Shown: positions 4,597 through 21,228 of the stretch, piece after piece | Position numbering within the stretch: the stretch's first letter is position 1 | How the letters are laid out: each line of letters begins with the position of its first letter | Assembly (NCBI RefSeq): GCF_003019035.1 | Contig: NZ_CP027447.1 | Direction: 5' to 3' (one strand) | DNA length: 64,000 nt | DNA from: Escherichia coli | GTDB taxonomy: Bacteria > Pseudomonadota > Gammaproteobacteria > Enterobacterales > Enterobacteriaceae | Program-made: the position numbers and the translations under genes | The notes under the pieces: generated by a model | Seen by the model: only the letters and a program-made list of their open reading frames with translations | What the model was told of the DNA's origin: nothing | Database searches by the model: none

Positions 4597-5892
4597 TTAC
4601 AGCGGATAATGCGCGAAGTACACGGCTTGCTGGTCATTAATTTTCTTCTCTTGCGCAAACCCTTCTTTAACAATTGTCCGTAAATCAGCTCGAGCCGTAT
4701 TATCAGAGACGCCCAGGCTCGCGCTAATTTCAGCAACTGTGTACTCTTTCCCCGGATTGGCGAGCATCACATTCAGGAGCGTTACCTGGCGCGGATTCAG
4801 GCGTTTAAGCACACCAGAGCTAAACAGCACACTATCGAGTTTTGCGCTTCGTTGTGTAATTTCATCGATATGCTGCTGCCAGTTTTGCAGAGCACGTTTA
4901 ATGACACCCGCCTGATATTCAAGGAAATAAGTCAGATCCATACCATCTGATTCAGTGTACTGGTAGCTGGCGGCATATTTGACCGGTGCAGCATGAAGCA
5001 AACGGCTGATGGAAATATATTTAAAGACATCGTAGCCCGATTTCAGCATATACCAGTAAAACAGCGCCCGACTGGTGCGCCCGTTGCCATCCCGAAACGG
5101 ATGTTCATGGGCCAGCATAAAATGCAGAATGCAGGCACGGACCAACGGATGAATATACCCTTCATGGCTGTTTAACCACTGGCAAACTTTTTCCAGCCGT
5201 TCCGGTAACAATGCCGCAGCGGGCGGTTGATGCACTATACTGCCATCATAGTCGGCGATCACAACATCATCTGTTTCACGAAATTCTCCCGGACGATATT
5301 TCGCGTCATTGATTCCACCCATACCAATGGCATGTAACTGGCGAATAAGCGCAGGTGTCAGCGGTTCTGCGAGTAAGTGCGGAATTTCCGCCATCAGCCG
5401 GGCATTTCCCGCAATCATATGCTCGTCTTCAGTGCGTGGCGACCGCCCTGTTTCCAGCATTTTTCTCGCCACCAGCGTTGTAGTATTCGCACCCTCCAGC
5501 TGGGAGCTGGTGATCGGCTCTTCCAGGCGTAACTGGCTTAACTCGGCTCCGGCCCCGCGTAACCGTTCAGTCTGATCTTTCAGCGCCAGCGCGGTAGCAC
5601 GTTTGTCGACAAGCTCGCACGCTTCTGCAATCACCGGGGTAATGTTGAATCCGGCCTGTTCACCCGCTTCATTGCAATAATTAATTCGTTGGATCGCCGC
5701 GTTGCGCGCCAGACGGGTAAGCGTCCACGCCACATCGACGTTTTCTCCTTTTTTGATGCGGTACTGCAACTCATCAAAAGGCAGATAACGTCCTTTTTCA
5801 TCGGTAACCCGGTTAAAGCGCAGGTGGGCCAGGAGTTCCTCACCCGATAAGTGTGATAAAGGAATAAGTCCGGGAGGTGATTTGATAGCCAT
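4597..5892 (-). CDS. Fic/Doc-family protein (putative AMP-transferase) with N-terminal inhibitory-helix motif and C-terminal winged-helix-like domain
   Basis: 431-aa ORF, ATG start. Fic motif [12 protein letters not shown] at residues 264-275 (nt 5068-5103); SSQLEG at residues 129-134 (nt 5491-5508) matches the (S/T)xxxE(G/N) auto-inhibition motif; C-terminal ~70 aa look like a wHTH. Confidence 0.85.
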
Positions 5893-11530: not shown

Positions 11531-14500
11531 ATGAGCGGAAAACCGGCGGCGCGTCAGGGCGACATGACGCAGTATGGCGGTAGCATTGTTCAGGGTTCTG
11601 CCGGGGTGCGTATTGGTGCCCCCACCGGTGTGGCCTGTTCGGTGTGCCCCGGCGGGGTGACGTCCGGCCATCCGGTCAATCCGCTGCTGGGTGCAAAGGT
11701 CCTTCCCGGCGAAACCGACCTTGCCCTGCCCGCCCCGCTGCCGTTCATTCTCTCCCGCACCTACAGCAGTTACCGGACAAAAACGCCCGCGCCGGTGGGG
11801 AGCCTCGGCCCCGGCTGGAAAATGCCTGCGGATATCCGCTTACAGCTGCGCGATAACACTCTGATACTCAGTGATAACGGCGGCAGAAGCCTGTATTTTG
11901 AGCACCTGTTTCCCGGTGAGGACGGTTACAGCCGCAGCGAGTCACTCTGGCTGGTGCGCGGCGGCGTGGCGAAACTGGATGAAGGTCACCGGCTGGCCGC
12001 ACTCTGGCAGGCGCTGCCGGAAGAGCTTCGCCTGAGTCCGCATCGTTATCTGGCGACGAACAGTCCACAGGGGCCGTGGTGGGTACTCGGCTGGTGTGAG
12101 CGGGTGCCGGAGGCGGAGAAGGCCACTTCCGGCGGGACGGAACCGTCCGCTTTTCCTGATACCCTGCCGGGTTACACCGAATATGGCCGGGACAACGGCA
12201 TCCGTCTGTCTGCCGTGTGGCTGACGCACGACCCGGAATACCCGGAGAATTTACCTGCCGCGCCGCTGGTGCGCTATGGCTGGACGCCACGCGGCGAACT
12301 GGCGGTGGTGTATGACCGCAGCAATACACAGGTGCGCAGCTTTACTTACGATGATAAATACCGGGGCCGGATGGTGGCGCACCGCCGCGCGGGCCGGCCG
12401 GAAATCCGTTACCGTTACGACAGCGACGGGCGGGTGACAGAACAGCTAAACCCGGCAGGCTTAAGCTACACGTATCAGTATGAGAAAGACCGCATCACCA
12501 TCACCGACAGCCTGGACCGCCGTGAAGTGCTGCACACGCAGGGCGAAGGCGGGCTGAAGCGGGTGGTGAAAAAGGAACACGCGGACGGCAGCGTCACGCA
12601 GAGTCAGTTTGACGCGGTGGGCAGGCTTAAGGCACAGACGGATGCCGCAGGCCGGACGACTGAGTACAGCCCGGATGTGGTGACGGGACTCATCACGCGC
12701 ATCACCACGCCGGATGGCAGGGCATCGGCGTTTTACTATAACCACCACAACCAGTTAACGTCAGCCACCTGGCCTGACGGGCTGGAAATACGCCGGGAAT
12801 ATGATGAATCCGGCCGTCTGATTCAGGAAACCGCACACAACGGCGATATCACCCGCTACCGTTATGATAATCCACACAGTGACTTCCCCTGCGCAACGGA
12901 CGATGCCACCGGCAGCCGGAAAACCATGACGTGGAGCCGTTACGGTCAGTTGCTGACCGTCACTGACTGTTCCGGTTATGTAACCCGTTATGACCATGAC
13001 CGCTTCGGGCAGATGACGGCGGTGCACCGCGAGGAAGGCCTGAGCCAGTACCGCGCATACGACAGCCGTGGACAGTTAATTGCGGTGAAAGACACGCAGG
13101 GCCATGAAACGCGGTATGAATACAACGCCGCCGGTGACCTGACCGCCGTCATTGCCCCGGACGGCAGCAGAAACGGGACACAGTACGATGCGTGGGGAAA
13201 GGCCGTCCGTACCACGCAGGGCGGGCTGACCCGCAGTATGGAATACGATGCTGCAGGACGGGTCATCCGCCTGACAAACGAAAATGGCAGCCACACCACC
13301 TTCCGTTACGATGTACTCGACCGGCTGATACAGGAAACCGGCTTTGACGGCCGCGCACAGCGTTATCACCACGACCTGACCGGCAAACTTATCCGCAGCG
13401 AGGATGAGGGGCTGGTCACCCACTGGCACTATGACGAAGCAGACCGCCTCACGCAGCGCACCGTGAATGGCGAAACCGCAGAGCGGTGGCAGTATGACGA
13501 ACGCGGCTGGCTGACAGGCATCAGCCATCTCAGCGAAGGGCACCGGGTGACGGTGCATTACAGGTATGATGAGAAAGGCCGCCTGACCGGTGAGCGCCAG
13601 ACGGTGCATCACCCGCAGACGGAAGCACTGCTCTGGCAGCATGAAACCAGACATGCGTACAACGCGCAGGGGCTGGCGAACCGCTGTATACCGGACAGCC
13701 TGCCCGCCGTGGAATGGCTGACTTATGGCAGTGGTTACCTGGCAGGGATGAAGCTGGGTGACTCGCCCCTGGTGGAGTACACCCGCGACCGCCTGCACCG
13801 GGAAACGCTGCGCAGCTTCGGCCGTTATGAACTCACCACCGCTTATACCCCTGCCGGGCAGTTACAGAGCCAGCACCTGAACAGCCTGCAGTATGACCGC
13901 GATTACACCTGGAACGACAACGGCGAACTCATTCGCATCAGCAGCCCGCGCCAGACCCGGAGTTACAGCTACAGCGACTCCGGCAGGCTGACCGGCGTTC
14001 ACACCACCGCAGCGAACCTGGATATCCGCATCCCGTATGCCACGGACCCGGCAGGTAACCGCCTGCCCGACCCGGAGCTGCACCCGGACAGCACCCTCAG
14101 CATGTGGCCGGATAACCGTATCGCCCGTGACGCGCACTATCTTTACCGGTATGACCGTCACGGCAGGCTGACGGAGAAAACCGACCTCATCCCGGAAGGG
14201 GTTATCCGCACGGATGATGAGCGGACTCACCGGTACCATTACGACAGCCGGCACCGGCTGGTGCACTACACGCGGACACAATATGCAGAGCCGCTGGTCG
14301 AAAGTCGCTATCTTTACGACCCGCTGGGCCGCAGGGTGGCAAAACGGGTATGGCGACGTGAACGGGACCTGACGGGCTGGATGTCGCTGTCACGGAAACC
14401 GGAAGTGACCTGGTACGGCTGGGACGGCGACCGGCTGACCACGATACAGAACGACAGAACCCGCATCCAGACGATTTATCAGCCGGGGAGCTTCACGCCA

Positions 14501-15571
14501 CTCATCAGGGTCGAAACCGCCACCGGTGAGCTGGCGAAAACGCAGCGCCGCAGCCTGGCGGATGCGCTTCAGCAGTCCGGCGGCGAAGACGGTGGTGATG
14601 TGGTGTTCCCGCCGGTGCTGGTGCAGATGCTCGACCGGCTGGAAAGTGAAATCCTGGCTGACCGGGTGAGTGAGGAAAGCCGCCGCTGGCTGGCATCGTG
14701 CGACCTGACGGTGGCGCAGATGCAAAACCAGATGGAACCGGTGTACACGCCGGCGCGAAAAATTCACCTGTACCACTGCGACCATCGCGGCCTGCCGCTG
14801 GCGCTTGTCAGCACGGAAGGGGCAACAGCGTGGTACGCAGAATACGATGAATGGGGCAACCTGCTGAATGAAGAGAACCCGCACCAGCTGCAGCAGCTCA
14901 TCCGCCTGCCGGGTCAGCAGTATGATGAGGAGTCCGGCCTGTATTACAACCGCCACCGCTATTATGACCCGCTGCAGGGGCGGTATATCACTCAGGATCC
15001 GATTGGGCTGAAGGGGGGATGGAACCTGTATGGATATCAATTGAATCCGATATCAGACATCGACCCCCTGGGTTTATCTATGTGGGAGGATGCAAAATCG
15101 GGGGCATGTACTAATGGTCTTTGCGGCACACTATCCGCTATGATAGGTCCAGATAAGTTTGATTCTATAGATAGCACCGCATATGACGCCTTAAATAAAA
15201 TAAATAGCCAATCTATTTGCGAAGATAAAGAGTTCGCTGGTTTAATATGTAAGGATAATAGTGGCAGATATTTCTCAACAGCACCTAACCGAGGGGAAAG
15301 AAAAGGATCATATCCATTCAATAGCCCTTGCCCTAATGGTACTGAGAAAGTATCAGCTTATCATACTCATGGTGCAGATAGTCATGGAGAATATTGGGAC
15401 GAAATATTTTCAGGCAAAGATGAGAAAATAGTTAAAAGTAAAGATAACAATATCAAGTCATTTTATTTGGGCACGCCCAGTGGTAATTTTAAAGCAATAG
15501 ATAACCACGGGAAGGAAATAACAAACGGAAAAGGATTACCTAATGTCTGCAGAGTTCATGGTAATATGTAA
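11531..15571 (+). CDS. rhsA: Rhs-family polymorphic toxin (PAAR-like N-terminus, YD-repeat core, variable C-terminal toxin tip)
   Basis: 1346-aa ORF; N-terminal [17 protein letters not shown]...; many YD/RYxYD repeats; core ends at DPxGL (DPLGL, nt 15062-15076) followed by an AT-rich ~164-aa C-terminal domain with several Cys; located between yibF and yibA. Confidence 0.9.
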
Positions 15572-15926
15572 AAAAATATTGTTTAGGAACTGTGTCATTG
15601 TATCTTTGTTTGTTTTTACATACAACACATGGGCGCAGTGTAATAATAATATTAAAATAATGCGCAAGTATGAAAGTGAGGGTAAATATACCGTTAGAAA
15701 TTTGGTTAAAAATAAAGCTATAGCATTGGAATTAGCTGAGATATATGTTAAGAATCGTTATGGGCAGGATGCCGCAGAAGAAGAAAAACCATATAAAATC
15801 ACTGAGTTAACAACAAGTTGGGTTGTTGAAGGCACCATTCACTCAGACCAAATTGCTGGTGGGGTTTTTATTATAGAAATAGGCAAAAATGATGGGGGAA
15901 TTCTGAATTTTGGCCACGGAAAATAA
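15543..15926 (+). CDS. Candidate Rhs immunity protein (hypothetical)
   Basis: 127-aa ORF overlapping the last 29 nt of the rhs gene; AAGGA Shine-Dalgarno about 7 nt before the ATG; hydrophobic N-terminus; AT-rich like the toxin tip. Assigned by position only. Confidence 0.45.
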
Positions 15927-16030
15927 GTATGTAAGGATAATCAAACATCGTGTGCGCTGATGGCAGAGTAGGTGGAGGACTCCAGACAGTCAAACGATAA
16001 AAAAAGATAGCCTTTATGGAGGTTCCTGCA

Positions 16031-16873
16031 ATGTCAAATACATACCAGAAAAGAAAGGCAAGTAAAGAGTATGGTTTATATAATCAATGTAAGAAACTAA
16101 ATGATGATGAATTATTTCGCTTACTTGATGATCACAATTCCTTGAAAAGGATTTCATCTGCCAGAGTATTACAGTTAAGAGGTGGGCAAGACGCTGTTAG
16201 ATTGGTAATTGAGTTCTGCTCTGATAAAAATTATATCCGTAGAGATATCGGAGCATTTATACTCGGGCAAATAAAAATTTTCAAAAAATGCGAAGATAAT
16301 GTGTTTAATATTTTGAACAATATGGCATTGAATGATAAGAGCGCTTGCGTTCGAGCTACGGCAATCGAGTCAACGGCTCAGCGATGCAAGAAAAACCCAA
16401 TTTATTCACCTAAAATAGTAGAACAATCTCAAATTACTGCTTTTGATAAATCGACTAATGTCAGACGTGCTACAGCATTTGCTATTTCTGTTATCAATGA
16501 TAAAGCAACAATTCCACTATTGATTAATCTGTTAAAAGATCCAAATGGAGATGTCAGAAACTGGGCCGCATTTGCAATAAATATCAATAAATATGATAAT
16601 AGTGATATTAGGGATTGTTTTGTGGAGATGCTTCAGGATAAAAATGAGGAAGTCCGTATTGAAGCAATAATCGGACTTTCCTACAGAAAAGATAAAAGGG
16701 TTTTATCTGTTTTATGCGATGAGTTAAAAAAAAATACTGTTTATGATGATATCATTGAAGCTGCGGGTGAATTAGGTGATAAAACGCTACTTCCTGTTTT
16801 AGATACTATGTTGTACAAGTTTGATGACAATGAAATTATAACTTCCGCTATTGATAAGCTGAAGCGTTCATAG
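16031..16873 (+). CDS. yibA: HEAT/armadillo-like repeat protein
   Basis: 280-aa product from ATG 16031 (MSNTYQKRKASKEYGLYNQ...), GGAGG Shine-Dalgarno 8 nt upstream; ORF-track start 16016 is 5 codons further up. Matches my recollection of E. coli YibA. Confidence 0.8.
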   Translation: MSNTYQKRKASKEYGLYNQCKKLNDDELFRLLDDHNSLKRISSARVLQLRGGQDAVRLVIEFCSDKNYIRRDIGAFILGQIKIFKKCEDNVFNILNNMALNDKSACVRATAIESTAQRCKKNPIYSPKIVEQSQITAFDKSTNVRRATAFAISVINDKATIPLLINLLKDPNGDVRNWAAFAININKYDNSDIRDCFVEMLQDKNEEVRIEAIIGLSYRKDKRVLSVLCDELKKNTVYDDIIEAAGELGDKTLLPVLDTMLYKFDDNEIITSAIDKLKRS

Positions 16874-16920
16874 CGTGAGTTGCCTATGCACAGTGGGGTA
16901 TTCCCGCCGGCACGGTGCAG

Positions 16921-17040
16921 ATGCTCGATCGGCTGGAAAGTGAAATCCTGGCTGACCGGGTGAGTGAGGAAAGCCGCCGCTGGCTGGCATCGTGCGGCCT
17001 GACGGTGGCGCAGATGAAAAAACAGATGGAACCGGTGTAC
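16921..17040 (+). pseudogene. 5' portion of an orphan rhs core-end ORF, separated from its 3' part by an ISAs1-family insertion
   Basis: nt ~16901-17040 nearly duplicate rhsA nt ~14618-14746 (encoding [40 protein letters not shown]); reading frame runs into the IS left end and stops there. Confidence 0.7.
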
Positions 17041-18331
17041 CAGGGAAAGATCACGTAACGCTGCTTTTTTGTACTAAACAATTCGCATTTTATGTTTAAA
17101 AATTGAGATATTCCTCATTACCTGAAGCTGTTTTTTATTGCTTATACATGATCAAATACTCCTTACATAATTAAGGAGAACAAAATGGTACTTAAAAAAT
17201 TGATGGAACATATTTCTATTATCCCCGATTACAGACAAGCCTGGAAAGTGGAACATAAATTATCGGATATTCTACTGTTGACTATTTGCGCCGTTATTTC
17301 GGGTGCAGAAGGTTGGGAAGATATAGAGGATTTTGGGGAAACACATCTCGATTTTTTGAAGCAATATGGTGATTTTGAAAATGGTATTCCTGTTCACGAT
17401 ACCATTGCCAGAGTTGTATCCTGTATCAGTCCTGCAAAATTTCACGAGTGCTTTATTAACTGGATGCGTGACTGCCATTCTTCAGATGATAAAGGCGTCA
17501 TTGCAATTGATGGAAAAACGCTCCGGCACTCTTATGACAAGAGTCGCCGCAGGGGAGCGATTCATGTCATTAGTGCGTTCTCAACAATGCACAGTCTGGT
17601 CATCGGACAGATCAAGACGGATGAGAAATCCAATGAGATTACAGCTATCCCGGAACTTCTTAACATGCTGGATATTAAAGGAAAAATCATCACAACTGAT
17701 GCGATGGGTTGCCAGAAAGATATTGCAGAGAAGATACAAAAACAGGGAGGTGATTATTTATTCGCTGTAAAAGGAAACCAGGGGCGGCTAAATAAAGCCT
17801 TCGAGGAAAAATTTCCGCTGAAAGAATTAAATAATCCAGAGCATGACAGTTACGCAATTAGTGAAAAGAGTCACGGCAGAGAAGAAATCCGTCTTCACAT
17901 TGTCTGCGATGTCCCTGATGAACTTATTGATTTCACGTTTGAATGGAAAGGTCTGAAGAAATTATGCGTGGCAGTCTCCTTTCGGTCAATAATAGCAGAA
18001 CAAAAGAAAGAGCCCGAAATGACGGTCAGATATTATATCAGTTCTGCTGATTTAACCGCAGAGAAGTTCGCCACAGCAATCCGAAACCACTGGCACGTGG
18101 AGAATAAGCTGCACTGGCGTCTGGACGTGGTAATGAATGAAGACGACTGCAAAATAAGAAGAGGAAATGCAGCAGAATTATTTTCAGGGATACGGCACAT
18201 CGCTATTAATATTTTGACGAATGATAAGGTATTCAAGGCAGGGTTAAGACGTAAGATGCGAAAAGCAGCCATGGACAGAAAGTATCTGGCGTCAGTCCTT
18301 GCGGGGAGCGGGCTTTCGTAATCTTTCCCTG
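17041..18331 (+). mobile_element. ISAs1-family insertion sequence (H-repeat element), apparently intact
   Basis: Imperfect terminal inverted repeats CAGGGAAAGATCACG... (left) and ...CGTAATCTTTCCCTG (right; first 11 nt identical); flanked by 9-bp direct repeat CCGGTGTAC (17032-17040 and 18333-18341); carries a full-length transposase ORF. Confidence 0.85.
17185..18321 (+). CDS. ISAs1-family transposase (H-repeat-associated protein)
   Basis: 378-aa [54 protein letters not shown]..., recognisable as the H-repeat (YhhI/YdcC-type) transposase found in E. coli Rhs elements. Confidence 0.9.
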
Positions 18332-18335
18332 CCCG

Positions 18336-19109
18336 GTGTACACGCCGGCGCGAAAAATCCACCTGTACCACTGCGACCATCGCGGCCTGCCGCTGGTGCT
18401 TATCAGCACGGAAGGGGCAACAGCGTGGTACGCAGAATATGATGAATGGGGCAACCTGCTGAATGAAGAGAACCCGCACCAGCTGCAGCAGCTCATCCGC
18501 CTGCCGGGTCAGCAGTATGATGAGGAGTCCGGCCTGTATTACAACCGCCACCGCTATTATGACCCGCTGCAGGGGCGGTATATCACTCAGGATCCAATTG
18601 GGCTGAAGGGGGGATGGAATTTTTATCAGTATCCGTTGAATCCGATAACTGATATTGACCCGTTGGGATTAGCGACCTGTTTATACAGCATAACTTTAGG
18701 TATGCTTTCATGCGTTTCAGATACGCCAAGTGATGATAATTCTTATGGTGTGCTTACTATTTCAGTCGCCTCTGATAATAATGGTAATAATATGCAATGT
18801 AAAAATAATCCTGGTTGTACACACTTACAAAATAGAGGCCCAATACCTCAAGGGGTATGGAGCTGGAATGTTAATGGTCCTGGAGCAACCAATAGAAAAC
18901 CTAATGGTATACGTTTAGTACCGTCAGCAAATACAGAAACGTATAATCGTGATGGATTTTTAACACATAGTTGTTTAAACGCTTTTGGTCCATCTTTAGG
19001 ACCTCGATTCTGTTCCGAGGGTTGTATAACTGGTTCATCTAATGACATGCAAAAATTAAATGAGCTAATATTTTCAGAGCCAGATAGCACATTAACAGTG
19101 ACGGACTAG
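18336..19109 (+). CDS. Orphan Rhs C-terminal fragment: core end plus a distinct toxin tip (3' part of the disrupted orphan)
   Basis: 257-aa ORF, GTG first codon; N-terminal 105 aa nearly identical to the rhsA core end (…[19 protein letters not shown]…[10 protein letters not shown]…), DPLGL at 18657-18671, then an unrelated AT-rich tip ([17 protein letters not shown]...). Confidence 0.8.
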
Positions 19110-19113
19110 AAAT

Positions 19114-19635
19114 ATGGCAAGGTTATTAACAATTGTGCTTTTTTTCTCTATTTCTGCGAATGCAGTTACTGTAAACCAATTTCAGAGAGAGTTGGATTTG
19201 GCAGACAAGGCAATATTATGGGCACTAATATCAGCCAGTACCCAAGAGGGACGAAAAGCGTGTTCACTTAGCTATTTTTCATGTAAAGCCGCAGAGGCTG
19301 AACTCGGACTGGCATATATGGCTGCTAATGATAACAAGGCATTTCTCACATCCTTATCTAGAATAATGATGTACAAAATAGATGCTGGACTTTCCGAATC
19401 CTATACATGCTATTTATTAAGCAAGGGAAAGATCATAAGACCATATCTGAAGAATCTAAATCCACACCAACTTGTCGCTGATTGCATTGAAACTGTAAAT
19501 AAAATAAAAGATAAAAATAAAAAAATCATTGATATAGATTCAGTTAATATTTGCAATGATAATAAAAATATAAATTGGAGAGTTAATAGTACTATTGTAG
19601 CCATTGATGATTCTATAAAATGCATCGATGAATAA
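19114..19635 (+). CDS. Candidate immunity protein for the orphan Rhs toxin tip (hypothetical)
   Basis: 173-aa ORF starting 5 nt after the orphan stop; very AT-rich; signal-peptide-like N-terminus MARLLTIVLFFSISANA. Assigned by position only. Confidence 0.45.
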   Translation: MARLLTIVLFFSISANAVTVNQFQRELDLADKAILWALISASTQEGRKACSLSYFSCKAAEAELGLAYMAANDNKAFLTSLSRIMMYKIDAGLSESYTCYLLSKGKIIRPYLKNLNPHQLVADCIETVNKIKDKNKKIIDIDSVNICNDNKNINWRVNSTIVAIDDSIKCIDE

Positions 19636-19796
19636 TAACTTAATTATATTTAAAAATATATTAATAACTCACTCTCCAGGAGTTTTTTTAACTTAGTGTT
19701 ATAATGAATACGATAATTAAAAGTGAAGAGAAAAATAGTTGTATACATATATTCCATGAACCTACATTGTGATCTATAAATTATATATTTTTAAAT

Positions 19797-20081
19797 GTGA
19801 CTGTCATCCTTCAGATAATAAAGCCATCATCGCAATAGATGGAAAAGCACTCCTGCTCTTTTTTGATTAGAGCCGTGGCAGAGGAACAACTCATATCATC
19901 ATTGCGATCTCGACAATGTATAGTCTGATCCTTCGGCAGATCAAGACGGATAAAAATCCAATGAGTTCACACTCATCCCGAACTTCTTAACATAATGGAT
20001 ATTAACGAAAAATCATCACAGCCGATGAAATAATATGCAAAAATAATTAGTCCTTGCAGGGAGCAAAGTTCCATAATCTCC
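19797..20081 (+). pseudogene. Degenerate, internally deleted ISAs1-family (H-repeat) remnant
   Basis: nt 19797-~20027 align with indels to the central part of the intact transposase gene (e.g. TCATCCTTCAGATAATAAAGCCATCATCGCAATAGATGGAAAAG versus CCATTCTTCAGATGATAAAGGCGTCATTGCAATTGATGGAAAAACG); ~20045-20081 resemble the IS right end; no intact ORF. Confidence 0.6.
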
Positions 20082-20091
20082 CCCGCCCCCC

Positions 20092-21228
20092 TCAATGATC
20101 CAAATAAAGATAATGCATCCAGCTGGTCATTCTTAGCAGCACTTTCCGCATCACCGAAACATGGCTGAAATGGTCGGAGTAAACTGCCACCTGGGCGTAG
20201 ATGCCGTCGGGTAAAGCATCGATATCATCGTTAGGGTCCAGTTCAATGGTTCCCAGCACACCGTCCGTGCCGGGCACGACCGTTAATGATTGCAATACCC
20301 CTTGCGCCTGATACGAACCGCCTGGCACGACAGGTAAAATACTAGTCAGTTTGCCGTGGAACACCTGCCCAGGTAGCGCGTTAAACACCACTTCCGCATC
20401 ATCGCCGGGTTTCAGACGTAACAGCGAGTTCTGCCGAAATTGGGCGACAATTTGCCGTTTTTGCTCGGGGATGAAAACCATCACCGGACGTAGCGGCAAG
20501 GCAGCTGCGTATGTACCTGGGCGGATCAGTACCTGAGTGACGTAGCCATTGCTCGGTGCGCGAATGACAGTCTGCTCAAGGTTATATTTTGCTTCAGTAA
20601 GTTGCGCTCTTAAGCTCACAATCTGCGACTGCTCGCCGTTAACCATACTGTCGAGCTGGCTCTGGATCTGCGCCTGCTCCGCCACCGAGCCTTTCACCAG
20701 CGCGTCCTGCGCGAGGAAGTTTTGCCGCGCATCGTCGATGTCACGTTCCGAGAACGGATTCACTGCCGCCTGGCTGCCTATCAGGTAACGTTGATAATTT
20801 TTAAACAGACGGTCGCGCTCCGCTGAAACCTGGGTGGTGTTGGCCTGCGCTTCAGTGAGCTGCGCGCGCAGCGTCTTTATATTATGCGTCGCCGTCATCA
20901 GGTCAGCCTGAAGTCTGTCAACTCGCGCCTGGTAACGAACCGGGTCGAGCTTAAAAAGCACCTCGCCCTTCTGAATAAGCTGATTATTTTTGTCGGTGAC
21001 TTCAGTAACAATTCCCGTCACCTGTGGCGTGATGGGGATCGCTATCACTGCCTTTTGCGCGGTAAAAGTGTAAGGGTGGTTGTAGTTCATCAACAAAATC
21101 AAACCACTCACCAGAAACACGCCTCCCAGCGCCGCCGTCGCCAGCGTCCACTGATTTACCGGAATGCGGAAGATTTTAAAGACCGCCCACGCCAGCGCCA
21201 CGTAAGTTAAAACAATCAATAGATCCAT
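20092..21228 (-). CDS. yibH: HlyD-family membrane-fusion / secretion protein
   Basis: 378-aa ORF with N-terminal transmembrane helix and long coiled-coil region ([29 protein letters not shown]...); ATG confirmed at 21226-21228. Confidence 0.85.

Follow-up and report, generated by a model that had tools for sequence, protein, structure and literature searches.

We describe here an orphan Rhs C-terminal toxin/immunity cassette located downstream of rhsA in a 64,000-nt stretch of Escherichia coli DNA (contig NZ_CP027447.1 of assembly GCF_003019035.1; this whole stretch is called the window below). The cassette is interrupted by ISEc1, or H-repeat (H-rpt), an insertion sequence (IS) of the ISAs1 family. 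We consider it probable (roughly 0.8) that ISEc1 hit this cassette recently and in a single clone, and that the interruption is a matter of decay and not of a switch. In the cassette, some 480 bp of rhs core end are followed by a tip that encodes a putative peptidoglycan toxin of the Tlde1 family and by a gene for a periplasmic immunity protein of the Imm57 family. Coordinates of all features are collected in Table 1.

Elements of the ISAs1 family measure about 1.2-1.5 kb and have terminal inverted repeats starting with CAGGG. The window element agrees with them in its size and CAGGG ends, in a target duplication that falls within 8-10 bp, and in a transposase that spans the full length of the family profile (NCBIfam NF033564, 416.6 bits, cut-off 70; profile positions 1-314 of 314). 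Its inverted repeats are perfect over 11 of 11 positions (CAGGGAAAGAT) and match at 16 of 18 when extended. Nucleotide identity amounts to 97.3% with H-rptB of strain K-12 over 1291 nt and to 99.4% with the copy found in strain EC476. The transposase gene, taken to be intact in a preliminary description of this DNA, is indeed not frameshifted, and its product is equal in length to YhhI of K-12 and 98.7% identical to it.

The target site speaks for transposition. The 9-mer CCGGTGTAC stands at both 17032-17040 and 18333-18341, as the preliminary description had noted, and the probability of finding an identical 9-mer at both IS ends by chance is, by simple arithmetic, about 4e-6. The same description gave the element a length of 1291 bp and regarded the 9-mers as a true target duplication. 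The length is right for the IS itself, but the two 9-mers are separated by 1292 nt, the extra C at 18332 being a base of the target and not of the IS. The duplication, in turn, is genuine but longer than proposed: because IS-free alleles read GGA-CCCGGTGTAC-ACG at this site, it comprises 10 bp, and its left copy (17031-17040, ACCGGTGTAC) matches the right one (18332-18341, CCCGGTGTAC) at nine of the ten positions. In DSM 103246 (L004 7152-7161) and in yibJ of K-12 (5838-5847) the two window flanks are adjacent, overlapping by exactly the 10 duplicated bp. These alleles form filled-site/empty-site pairs with the window, and the duplication was therefore made by transposition. When the IS was excised in silico, the resulting sequence aligned across the junction as a single block with three natural alleles from the same chromosomal site, with an identity of 98.76% for Ec73552, 98.69% for strain 6409 and 95.4% for DSM 103246.

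Our population survey covered 5,426 complete genomes. Both IS junctions were intact in one piece in only one of them, SCU-301, which is an independent assembly and also the complete genome nearest to the window (11 mismatches and 25 gap positions across 16.8 kb). SCU-301 is the same clone, represented by an assembly with many small indel differences. Since the two junctions were found in SCU-301 only, the insertion is recent and clonal. We thus conclude from these sequence comparisons that a copy of ISEc1 transposed recently into the orphan cassette in one clone, with duplication of 10 bp of its target. The last 20-25 nt or so before the left IS end hold three private C-to-A differences (17016-17031, GATGAAAAAACAGATGGAA vs GATGCAAAACCAGATGGAC), and no uninterrupted rhs with the exact left-flank variant GATGAAAAAACAGATGGAA was present in the surveyed genomes, the best match reaching 97.6%.

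It might be assumed that such junctions arose by recombination and not by simple transposition, from IS copies or rhs fragments of an array like that of EC476 (yibA-orphan1-...-ISEc1-truncated rhs-Tlde1-Imm57). This idea can draw on the fact that the window flanks and the IS are closest to the EC476 lineage (98-99.4% identity), that the EC476 copy of the IS is found in the same rhs tract, 230 bp deeper, and lacks a target duplication, and that the window right flank (18332-18645) has an identity of only 97.1% to orphan 1 of EC476. However, a duplication that matches at 9 of 10 bp, and whose copies lie side by side in every uninterrupted allele, is what an insertion leaves behind, and the order A/IS/B-C-Tlde1 cannot be obtained by any single crossover in EC476. 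A homologous deletion between two core-end tracts may well have taken out an orphan 1 at an earlier time, but it would make no IS junctions. We thus find an origin by recombination very unlikely. The derivation of the window arrangement from the commoner EC476 architecture by one recombination was considered as well and rejected, as the junctions seen here do not result from it.

Descriptions of E. coli Rhs elements that contain an H-rpt and have an orphan tip downstream of rhs go back a long time (PMC3032704, for example). The window copy resembles the H-rpt/ISEc1 of Rhs loci, such as H-rptB of K-12 with its yhhI gene, in the length of 1291 bp, the CAGGG ends, the 378-aa transposase and the placement within an Rhs element. 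It differs from them in having a clean target duplication and empty sites, whereas the copies of K-12, EC476 and K_EC180 that we examined are devoid of a duplication. In the EC476 type (about 85 genomes; L002 7024-10174) the right end of the IS abuts a truncated rhs at the equivalent of window position 18563, and in the K_EC180 type (about 42 genomes; L007 4769-6964) it abuts a truncated rhs about 30 bp upstream of the window site, in both cases with no duplication. With the window, this makes at least three junction classes in which the right end of an H-rpt abuts an rhs core fragment, and the transposase is co-oriented with rhs in all three. One could speculate that ISEc1/H-rpt may be active, may prefer the 3' part of the rhs core tract and may help to make and move orphan cassettes. 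In this scenario the insertion in the window, simple and with an undisturbed duplication, would be a first stage. IS-IS or IS-adjacent rearrangements would follow and leave behind 5'-truncated core fragments beginning exactly at the right end of an H-rpt, a state that the EC476 and K_EC180 types would represent. We regard this as a tentative and rather unlikely proposal. Remnants of H-rpt are found in the same loci. In EC476, a second remnant (IS positions 217-350; L002 8643-8776) adjoins the left end of the intact IS, and the diverged remnant downstream of the window cassette is kept in all IS-free alleles (Ec73552, DSM 103246 and strain 6409), while in K-12 it overlaps the yibU pseudogene.

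The preliminary description placed an orphan rhs toxin/immunity module downstream of rhsA, with rhs homology continuing on both sides of the IS, and our results support it in both respects. According to blastn, the left piece of the core-end tract (16894-17040) is 93.9% identical to rhsA 14599-14746, and the right one (18333-18671) is 94.1% identical to rhsA 14738-15076 over 339 bp, the longest perfect block being 155 nt. The segment with yibA and the left piece (15979-17040) shows 99.0% identity to yibA-yibJ of K-12. The right piece matches only positions 1151-1261 of the 1261 positions of the RHS_core profile, i.e., the last 111, in addition to TIGR03696 and Pfam RHS. The cassette thus has a core-end fragment that ends in PxxxxDPxGL and has neither the N-terminal region nor the YD-repeat shell, a co-oriented rhs upstream and a tip/immunity pair that elsewhere is part of a full-length rhs, all of which are features of orphan modules.

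It was also claimed that precise excision would restore an open reading frame (ORF), and that the IS silences or regulates the toxin. When position 17040 is joined to 18342, one frame does run open via PVYTPARK to DPLGL and on into the tip. This frame opens directly after a TGA at 16876. Its ATG at 16921 codes for a Met inside the rhs core, and inspection of the bases before it shows no clear Shine-Dalgarno sequence. As this ATG is internal to the core, what excision restores is a core fragment and not a stand-alone gene. In a switch of the kind envisaged, the orphan toxin would be kept silent by the IS and come back into use when the IS is precisely excised at the 9-bp repeats or when transposase acts. 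The exact repeats, the intact transposase and the frame restored in silico are all compatible with such a mechanism. On the other hand, IS-free alleles are no more expressible than the interrupted one: they hold the same truncated core fragment, equally without start context, Rhs shell and N-terminal delivery region, and are annotated as partial pseudogenes by the Prokaryotic Genome Annotation Pipeline. The position of the ATG inside the core argues in the same direction, and so do the privacy of the insertion to one clone and the possibility of fusion to rhsA without any excision. Moreover, precise excision of a DDE-type IS by slippage between 9-bp repeats is generally very rare. The claim of silencing or regulation is therefore not upheld, and an IS-controlled switch seems to us highly improbable.

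The tip, which the preliminary description could not recognize, contains a Tlde1-family domain. It matches Pfam PF10908 (Tlde1) with an i-Evalue of 1.5e-6 and 29.0 bits over residues 153-241, its homologues have precomputed PF10908 assignments, and near-identical copies are named accordingly in RefSeq, the EC476 copy being called 'tlde1 domain-containing protein'. Fold comparison assigns the tip to the YkuD / L,D-transpeptidase fold. A phmmer search of the tip against PDB chains gave nothing up to an E-value of 10, and with a profile built from 11 tip homologues the hits were confined to the Rhs DPxGL stretch in other Rhs/Tc proteins. Ralstonia, Paraburkholderia and a metagenome assembly of acidobacterial origin have homologues that extend over the whole tip (49-66% identity); several of these are annotated as RHS proteins, and in some the alignment has rhs core-end sequence upstream of the tip. 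Invariant among the 11 aligned tips are H99, C101, C114, E116, G117, C118 and several further cysteines, and S115 is conserved in 10 of the 11. The published catalytic motif of Tlde1 is H-x(14-17)-(S/T)-H-G-C-h (PMC9638812). The tip has H99-x15-S115-E116-G117-C118-I, so that the second His of the motif is replaced by a Glu that is invariant in the 11 homologues; E-G-C stands in place of H-G-C in all Rhs-linked Tlde1 homologues that we aligned, including those of Ralstonia, Paraburkholderia and the acidobacterial assembly. Cys118 is the presumed nucleophile.

The 173-codon ORF behind the tip had been put forward as a candidate immunity gene with a signal-peptide-like N-terminus, and our results support this assignment. 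Its product matches Pfam PF15596 (Imm57) with an E-value of 2e-44 over model positions 2-100 of 100, and identical or near-identical copies are named 'Imm57 family immunity protein' in RefSeq. Its N-terminus resembles, by inspection, a Sec-type signal peptide (MARLLTIVLFFSISANA/VT), as would be expected for a partner of a toxin acting in the periplasm. The pair may be compared to Tlde1a/Tldi1a of Salmonella Typhimurium, a type VI secretion system (T6SS) L,D-carboxypeptidase/transpeptidase-exchange effector (PDB 7UMA) and its immunity protein. Both systems share the His...Gly-Cys arrangement with the right spacing and an immunity protein with a signal peptide. However, the identity is only about 14%, the window tip is an Rhs C-terminus while Tlde1a is a stand-alone effector, the motif of the window tip is S-E-G-C instead of (S/T)-H-G-C, and the window immunity protein belongs to the Imm57 family. 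In the library searched, no paper names Tlde1 together with Imm57, and no experimental paper on the pairing came up; a search for ISEc1/H-rpt in connection with Rhs yielded few papers that bear on it directly.

The IS-free module is widespread. About 3,358 of the surveyed genomes match at least 80% of the query, mostly with 90-95% identity. In Ec73552, at the same locus, the tip forms the C-terminus of a full-length Rhs (4179 nt, 1392 aa) and Imm57 follows directly after it. K-12 has a decayed copy that is 90% identical and consists of yibS, yibW, yibV and yibU, of which yibV is annotated as a PF15596 family protein; the window cassette is the intact counterpart of yibS-yibW-yibV. In comparison to the K-12 array (rhsA-yibA-yibJ-yibG-yibS-yibW-yibV-yibU), the window has its core-end tract split by an intact IS and, like DSM 103246, lacks the yibJ tip and yibG. 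Orphan rhs-CT/rhsI modules, where CT stands for the C-terminal tip and rhsI for the immunity gene, are known from Enterobacteria (Poole et al. 2011, PMC3150448; PMC7043789, citing Koskiniemi 2014), and the K-12 array is the local example of them. The window cassette resembles those described in PMC3150448 and, for Salmonella, PMC7043789 in that a 5'-truncated core end, a variable tip and an immunity gene lie 3' of a co-oriented full-length rhs, and in that the tip is joined to a full-length rhs in other strains, here in Ec73552. IS elements are not discussed in Poole et al. 2011 (PMC3150448).

What could be the use of such a cassette? On its own, with the IS or without it, it would not be expressed as a toxin, because it has no start, no Rhs cage and no N-terminal delivery region. 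It might provide immunity against neighbours that deliver Rhs-Tlde1, and it might serve as a reservoir tip. Orphan tips are described, in PMC3150448 and PMC7043789 (citing Koskiniemi 2014), as not delivered alone and as becoming active once homologous recombination fuses them to the main rhs. In the window, the tip would be activated only by RecA-type recombination between rhsA 14738-15076 and orphan 18333-18671, which would fuse it to rhsA. The segment lost in such a fusion would hold the resident tip with its immunity gene, yibA, the left fragment as well as the IS, and an rhs::Tlde1 gene like that of Ec73552 would result. Once delivered, the toxin would act in the periplasm of the target cell, where it would cleave or exchange the D-Ala4 of peptidoglycan stem peptides, and Imm57 would neutralize it in kin. 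The preliminary description had proposed reactivation either by excision or by recombination. The latter route stands, Ec73552 being a natural case, but excision is not required, as the 339-bp right tract with its 155-nt perfect block suffices for a fusion to rhsA that in itself deletes the IS. With the IS in place, only 339 bp out of about 480 bp of homology could still be used, and a crossover in the left 147 bp would put the IS inside rhsA, which would amount to an rhsA knock-out. We infer that the IS reduces and biases the reservoir function without abolishing it, and we would see in it a recent hit with a neutral or mildly deleterious effect, not a regulator.

Another way to view the cassette is as a type II toxin-antitoxin pair with expression from within, which has been reported for Salmonella rhs orphans; the IS would then be irrelevant to it. 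For Salmonella, an internal rhs promoter, P2, has been reported from which transcription starts 89 nt before PxxxxDPxGL, and E. coli is said to have similar sequences (PMC7043789). Window positions 18503-18553, as well as rhsA 14908-14958, are homologous to P2, with ATGATG at the -35-equivalent and TACAAC at the -10-equivalent. The P2-homologous position (about 18553) is on the right side of the IS. Activity of P2 at the orphan cannot be assumed with a -10-equivalent of TACAAC, a hexamer without the terminal T. In addition, the tip has a fold of periplasm-acting proteins and many invariant cysteines but no signal peptide of its own, and the immunity protein is exported. Toxin-antitoxin logic would not apply, because a tip that stays in the cytoplasm should be harmless if the toxin acts in the periplasm. 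Of all the explanations discussed here, we hold this one to be the least probable.

The resident rhsA has a lesion as well. In comparison to rhs of EC476 and DSM 103246, 195 nt (65 codons) are deleted in frame near codon 196 (window 12114-12117), and the match to the NCBIfam RHS_core profile (2448 bits, cut-off 2000) is split in two, with a gap at profile positions of about 200-273. The deletion junction was found in one piece only in SCU-301. This clone-private deletion suggests relaxed selection on the whole locus, and a private insertion together with a private rhsA deletion fits drift or decay better than a switch.

Several points weigh against the reading of the cassette as a decaying reservoir that was hit by ISEc1. 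It does not account for the three private C-to-A changes beside the left IS end. The structural model of the tip is only moderately confident (predicted local distance difference test score, pLDDT, of 72.6), its catalytic motif is a variant, SEGC and not (S/T)HGC, and the L,D-carboxypeptidase/transpeptidase chemistry is deduced from fold and family. Likewise, toxicity of the tip and its specific neutralization by the neighbouring protein are presumed from family membership. A recombinant might be non-functional, given the 65-aa deletion in rhsA. A T6SS delivery route is not visible in the window, as there is no vgrG beside rhsA, and at the rhsA N-terminus, which has DUF6531, the match to the PAAR motif is weak (E 0.15). 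Finally, read-through from the IS could alter transcription of the tip and the immunity gene, as there is no plus-strand terminator-like site from the transposase gene to Imm57 (17185-19635).

The last point may be developed into an explanation of its own, in which the IS was co-opted to supply transcription: transcripts that start at the transposase promoter would run on into the tip fragment and, above all, Imm57, thus giving stronger immunity against Rhs-Tlde1 attackers. Besides the lack of terminator-like sites, it can be said in favour of this idea that the transposase gene and the cassette are co-oriented, that only 14 nt separate the transposase stop codon from the GTG of the 257-aa ORF, and that the P2-equivalent -10 is weakened (TACAAC vs TACAAT), so that an extra promoter could matter. 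Still, the argument is purely positional. A promoter/terminator scan of 15500-20200 gave counts at chance level (for promoters, 17 sites vs 16.2 expected) and no usable evidence on an orphan promoter or one directed outwards from the IS. Besides, the module is matched in its IS-free form in so many of the surveyed genomes, and the insertion is confined to one clone. We therefore judge a gain of expression from the IS unlikely, and prefer to see the insertion as a step in decay of the cassette.

As to the surroundings, the window represents the E. coli rhsA locus, and the gene order is selB-selA-yibF on the minus strand, a full-length rhs, a yhhH-like immunity gene, yibA, the orphan cassette, yibH-yibI and mtlA. 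Five of the loci used for comparison are labelled L002 (EC476), L003 (Ec73552), L004 (DSM 103246), L005 (strain 6409) and L007 (K_EC180). The yibA gene is annotated by name in L001, EC476, Ec73552, DSM 103246 and K-12. Neither the yhhH-like immunity protein nor the Imm57 protein had a match in the NCBIfam hidden Markov model search. An ORF of 1648 aa is located on the plus strand at 28024-32970, about 8 kb 3' of mtlA-mtlD-mtlR.

Table 1. Features of the rhsA locus and of the interrupted orphan cassette (positions in the window)
Feature	Position	Strand	Remarks
Full-length rhs at the rhsA locus	11531-15571	+	1346 aa; RhsB-type tip
rhsA core-end tract duplicated in the orphan; substrate for tip displacement	14599-15076	+	by blastn
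yhhH-like immunity gene of the resident rhsA tip	15543-15926	+	127 aa; position and length as yhhH of L001, EC476 and DSM 103246
yibA (HEAT-repeat protein)	16016-16873	+	NCBIfam NF007244, 459 bits vs cut-off 275
Orphan cassette	16894-19635	+	downstream of rhsA 11531-15571, same strand
Left (5') piece of the orphan core-end tract	16894-17040	+	ends in left duplication copy 17031-17040
ISEc1 / H-rpt (ISAs1 family)	17041-18331	+	1291 bp, CAGGG...CCCTG; limits by comparison with K-12 H-rptB and two other copies
Inverted repeats of ISEc1	17041-17051 and 18321-18331		ends CAGGGAAAGAT and ATCTTTCCCTG
ISAs1-family transposase gene, intact	17185-18321	+	378 aa, no internal stop
Right (3') piece of the orphan core-end tract	18332-18671	+	starts with right duplication copy, ends at PxxxxDPxGL
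ORF of right core end and tip	18336-19109	+	257 aa, GTG start
Putative toxin tip, Tlde1 family (YkuD / L,D-transpeptidase fold)	18672-19109	+	145 aa and stop
Imm57-family immunity gene	19114-19635	+	173 aa; start 5 nt past the tip stop codon
Old diverged H-rpt remnant, equivalent of K-12 yibU	19797-20027	+	between Imm57 and yibH; 79.5% identity to IS positions 428-661

Every component of this locus belongs to a known family, the arrangement has long been described, and the IS hit is a one-clone event. The worth of the analysis thus lies mostly in annotation: a tip that had not been recognized can be named as a Tlde1-family domain paired with Imm57, in a module that is common in E. coli and decayed in K-12. 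For specialists there are small novelties in the SEGC variant of the Rhs-linked Tlde1 branch and in its pairing with Imm57. A further small novelty concerns the H-rpt itself. Its transposition has been reported as not observed (PMC3032704), whereas the clean target duplication and the empty sites found here for ISEc1, i.e., filled and empty alleles and an insertion in one clone, constitute genomic, population-level evidence that H-rpt does transpose. If the tentative idea that H-rpt targets the 3' rhs core tract were true, it would account for the link between H-rpt and Rhs elements, which was noted long ago but not explained.

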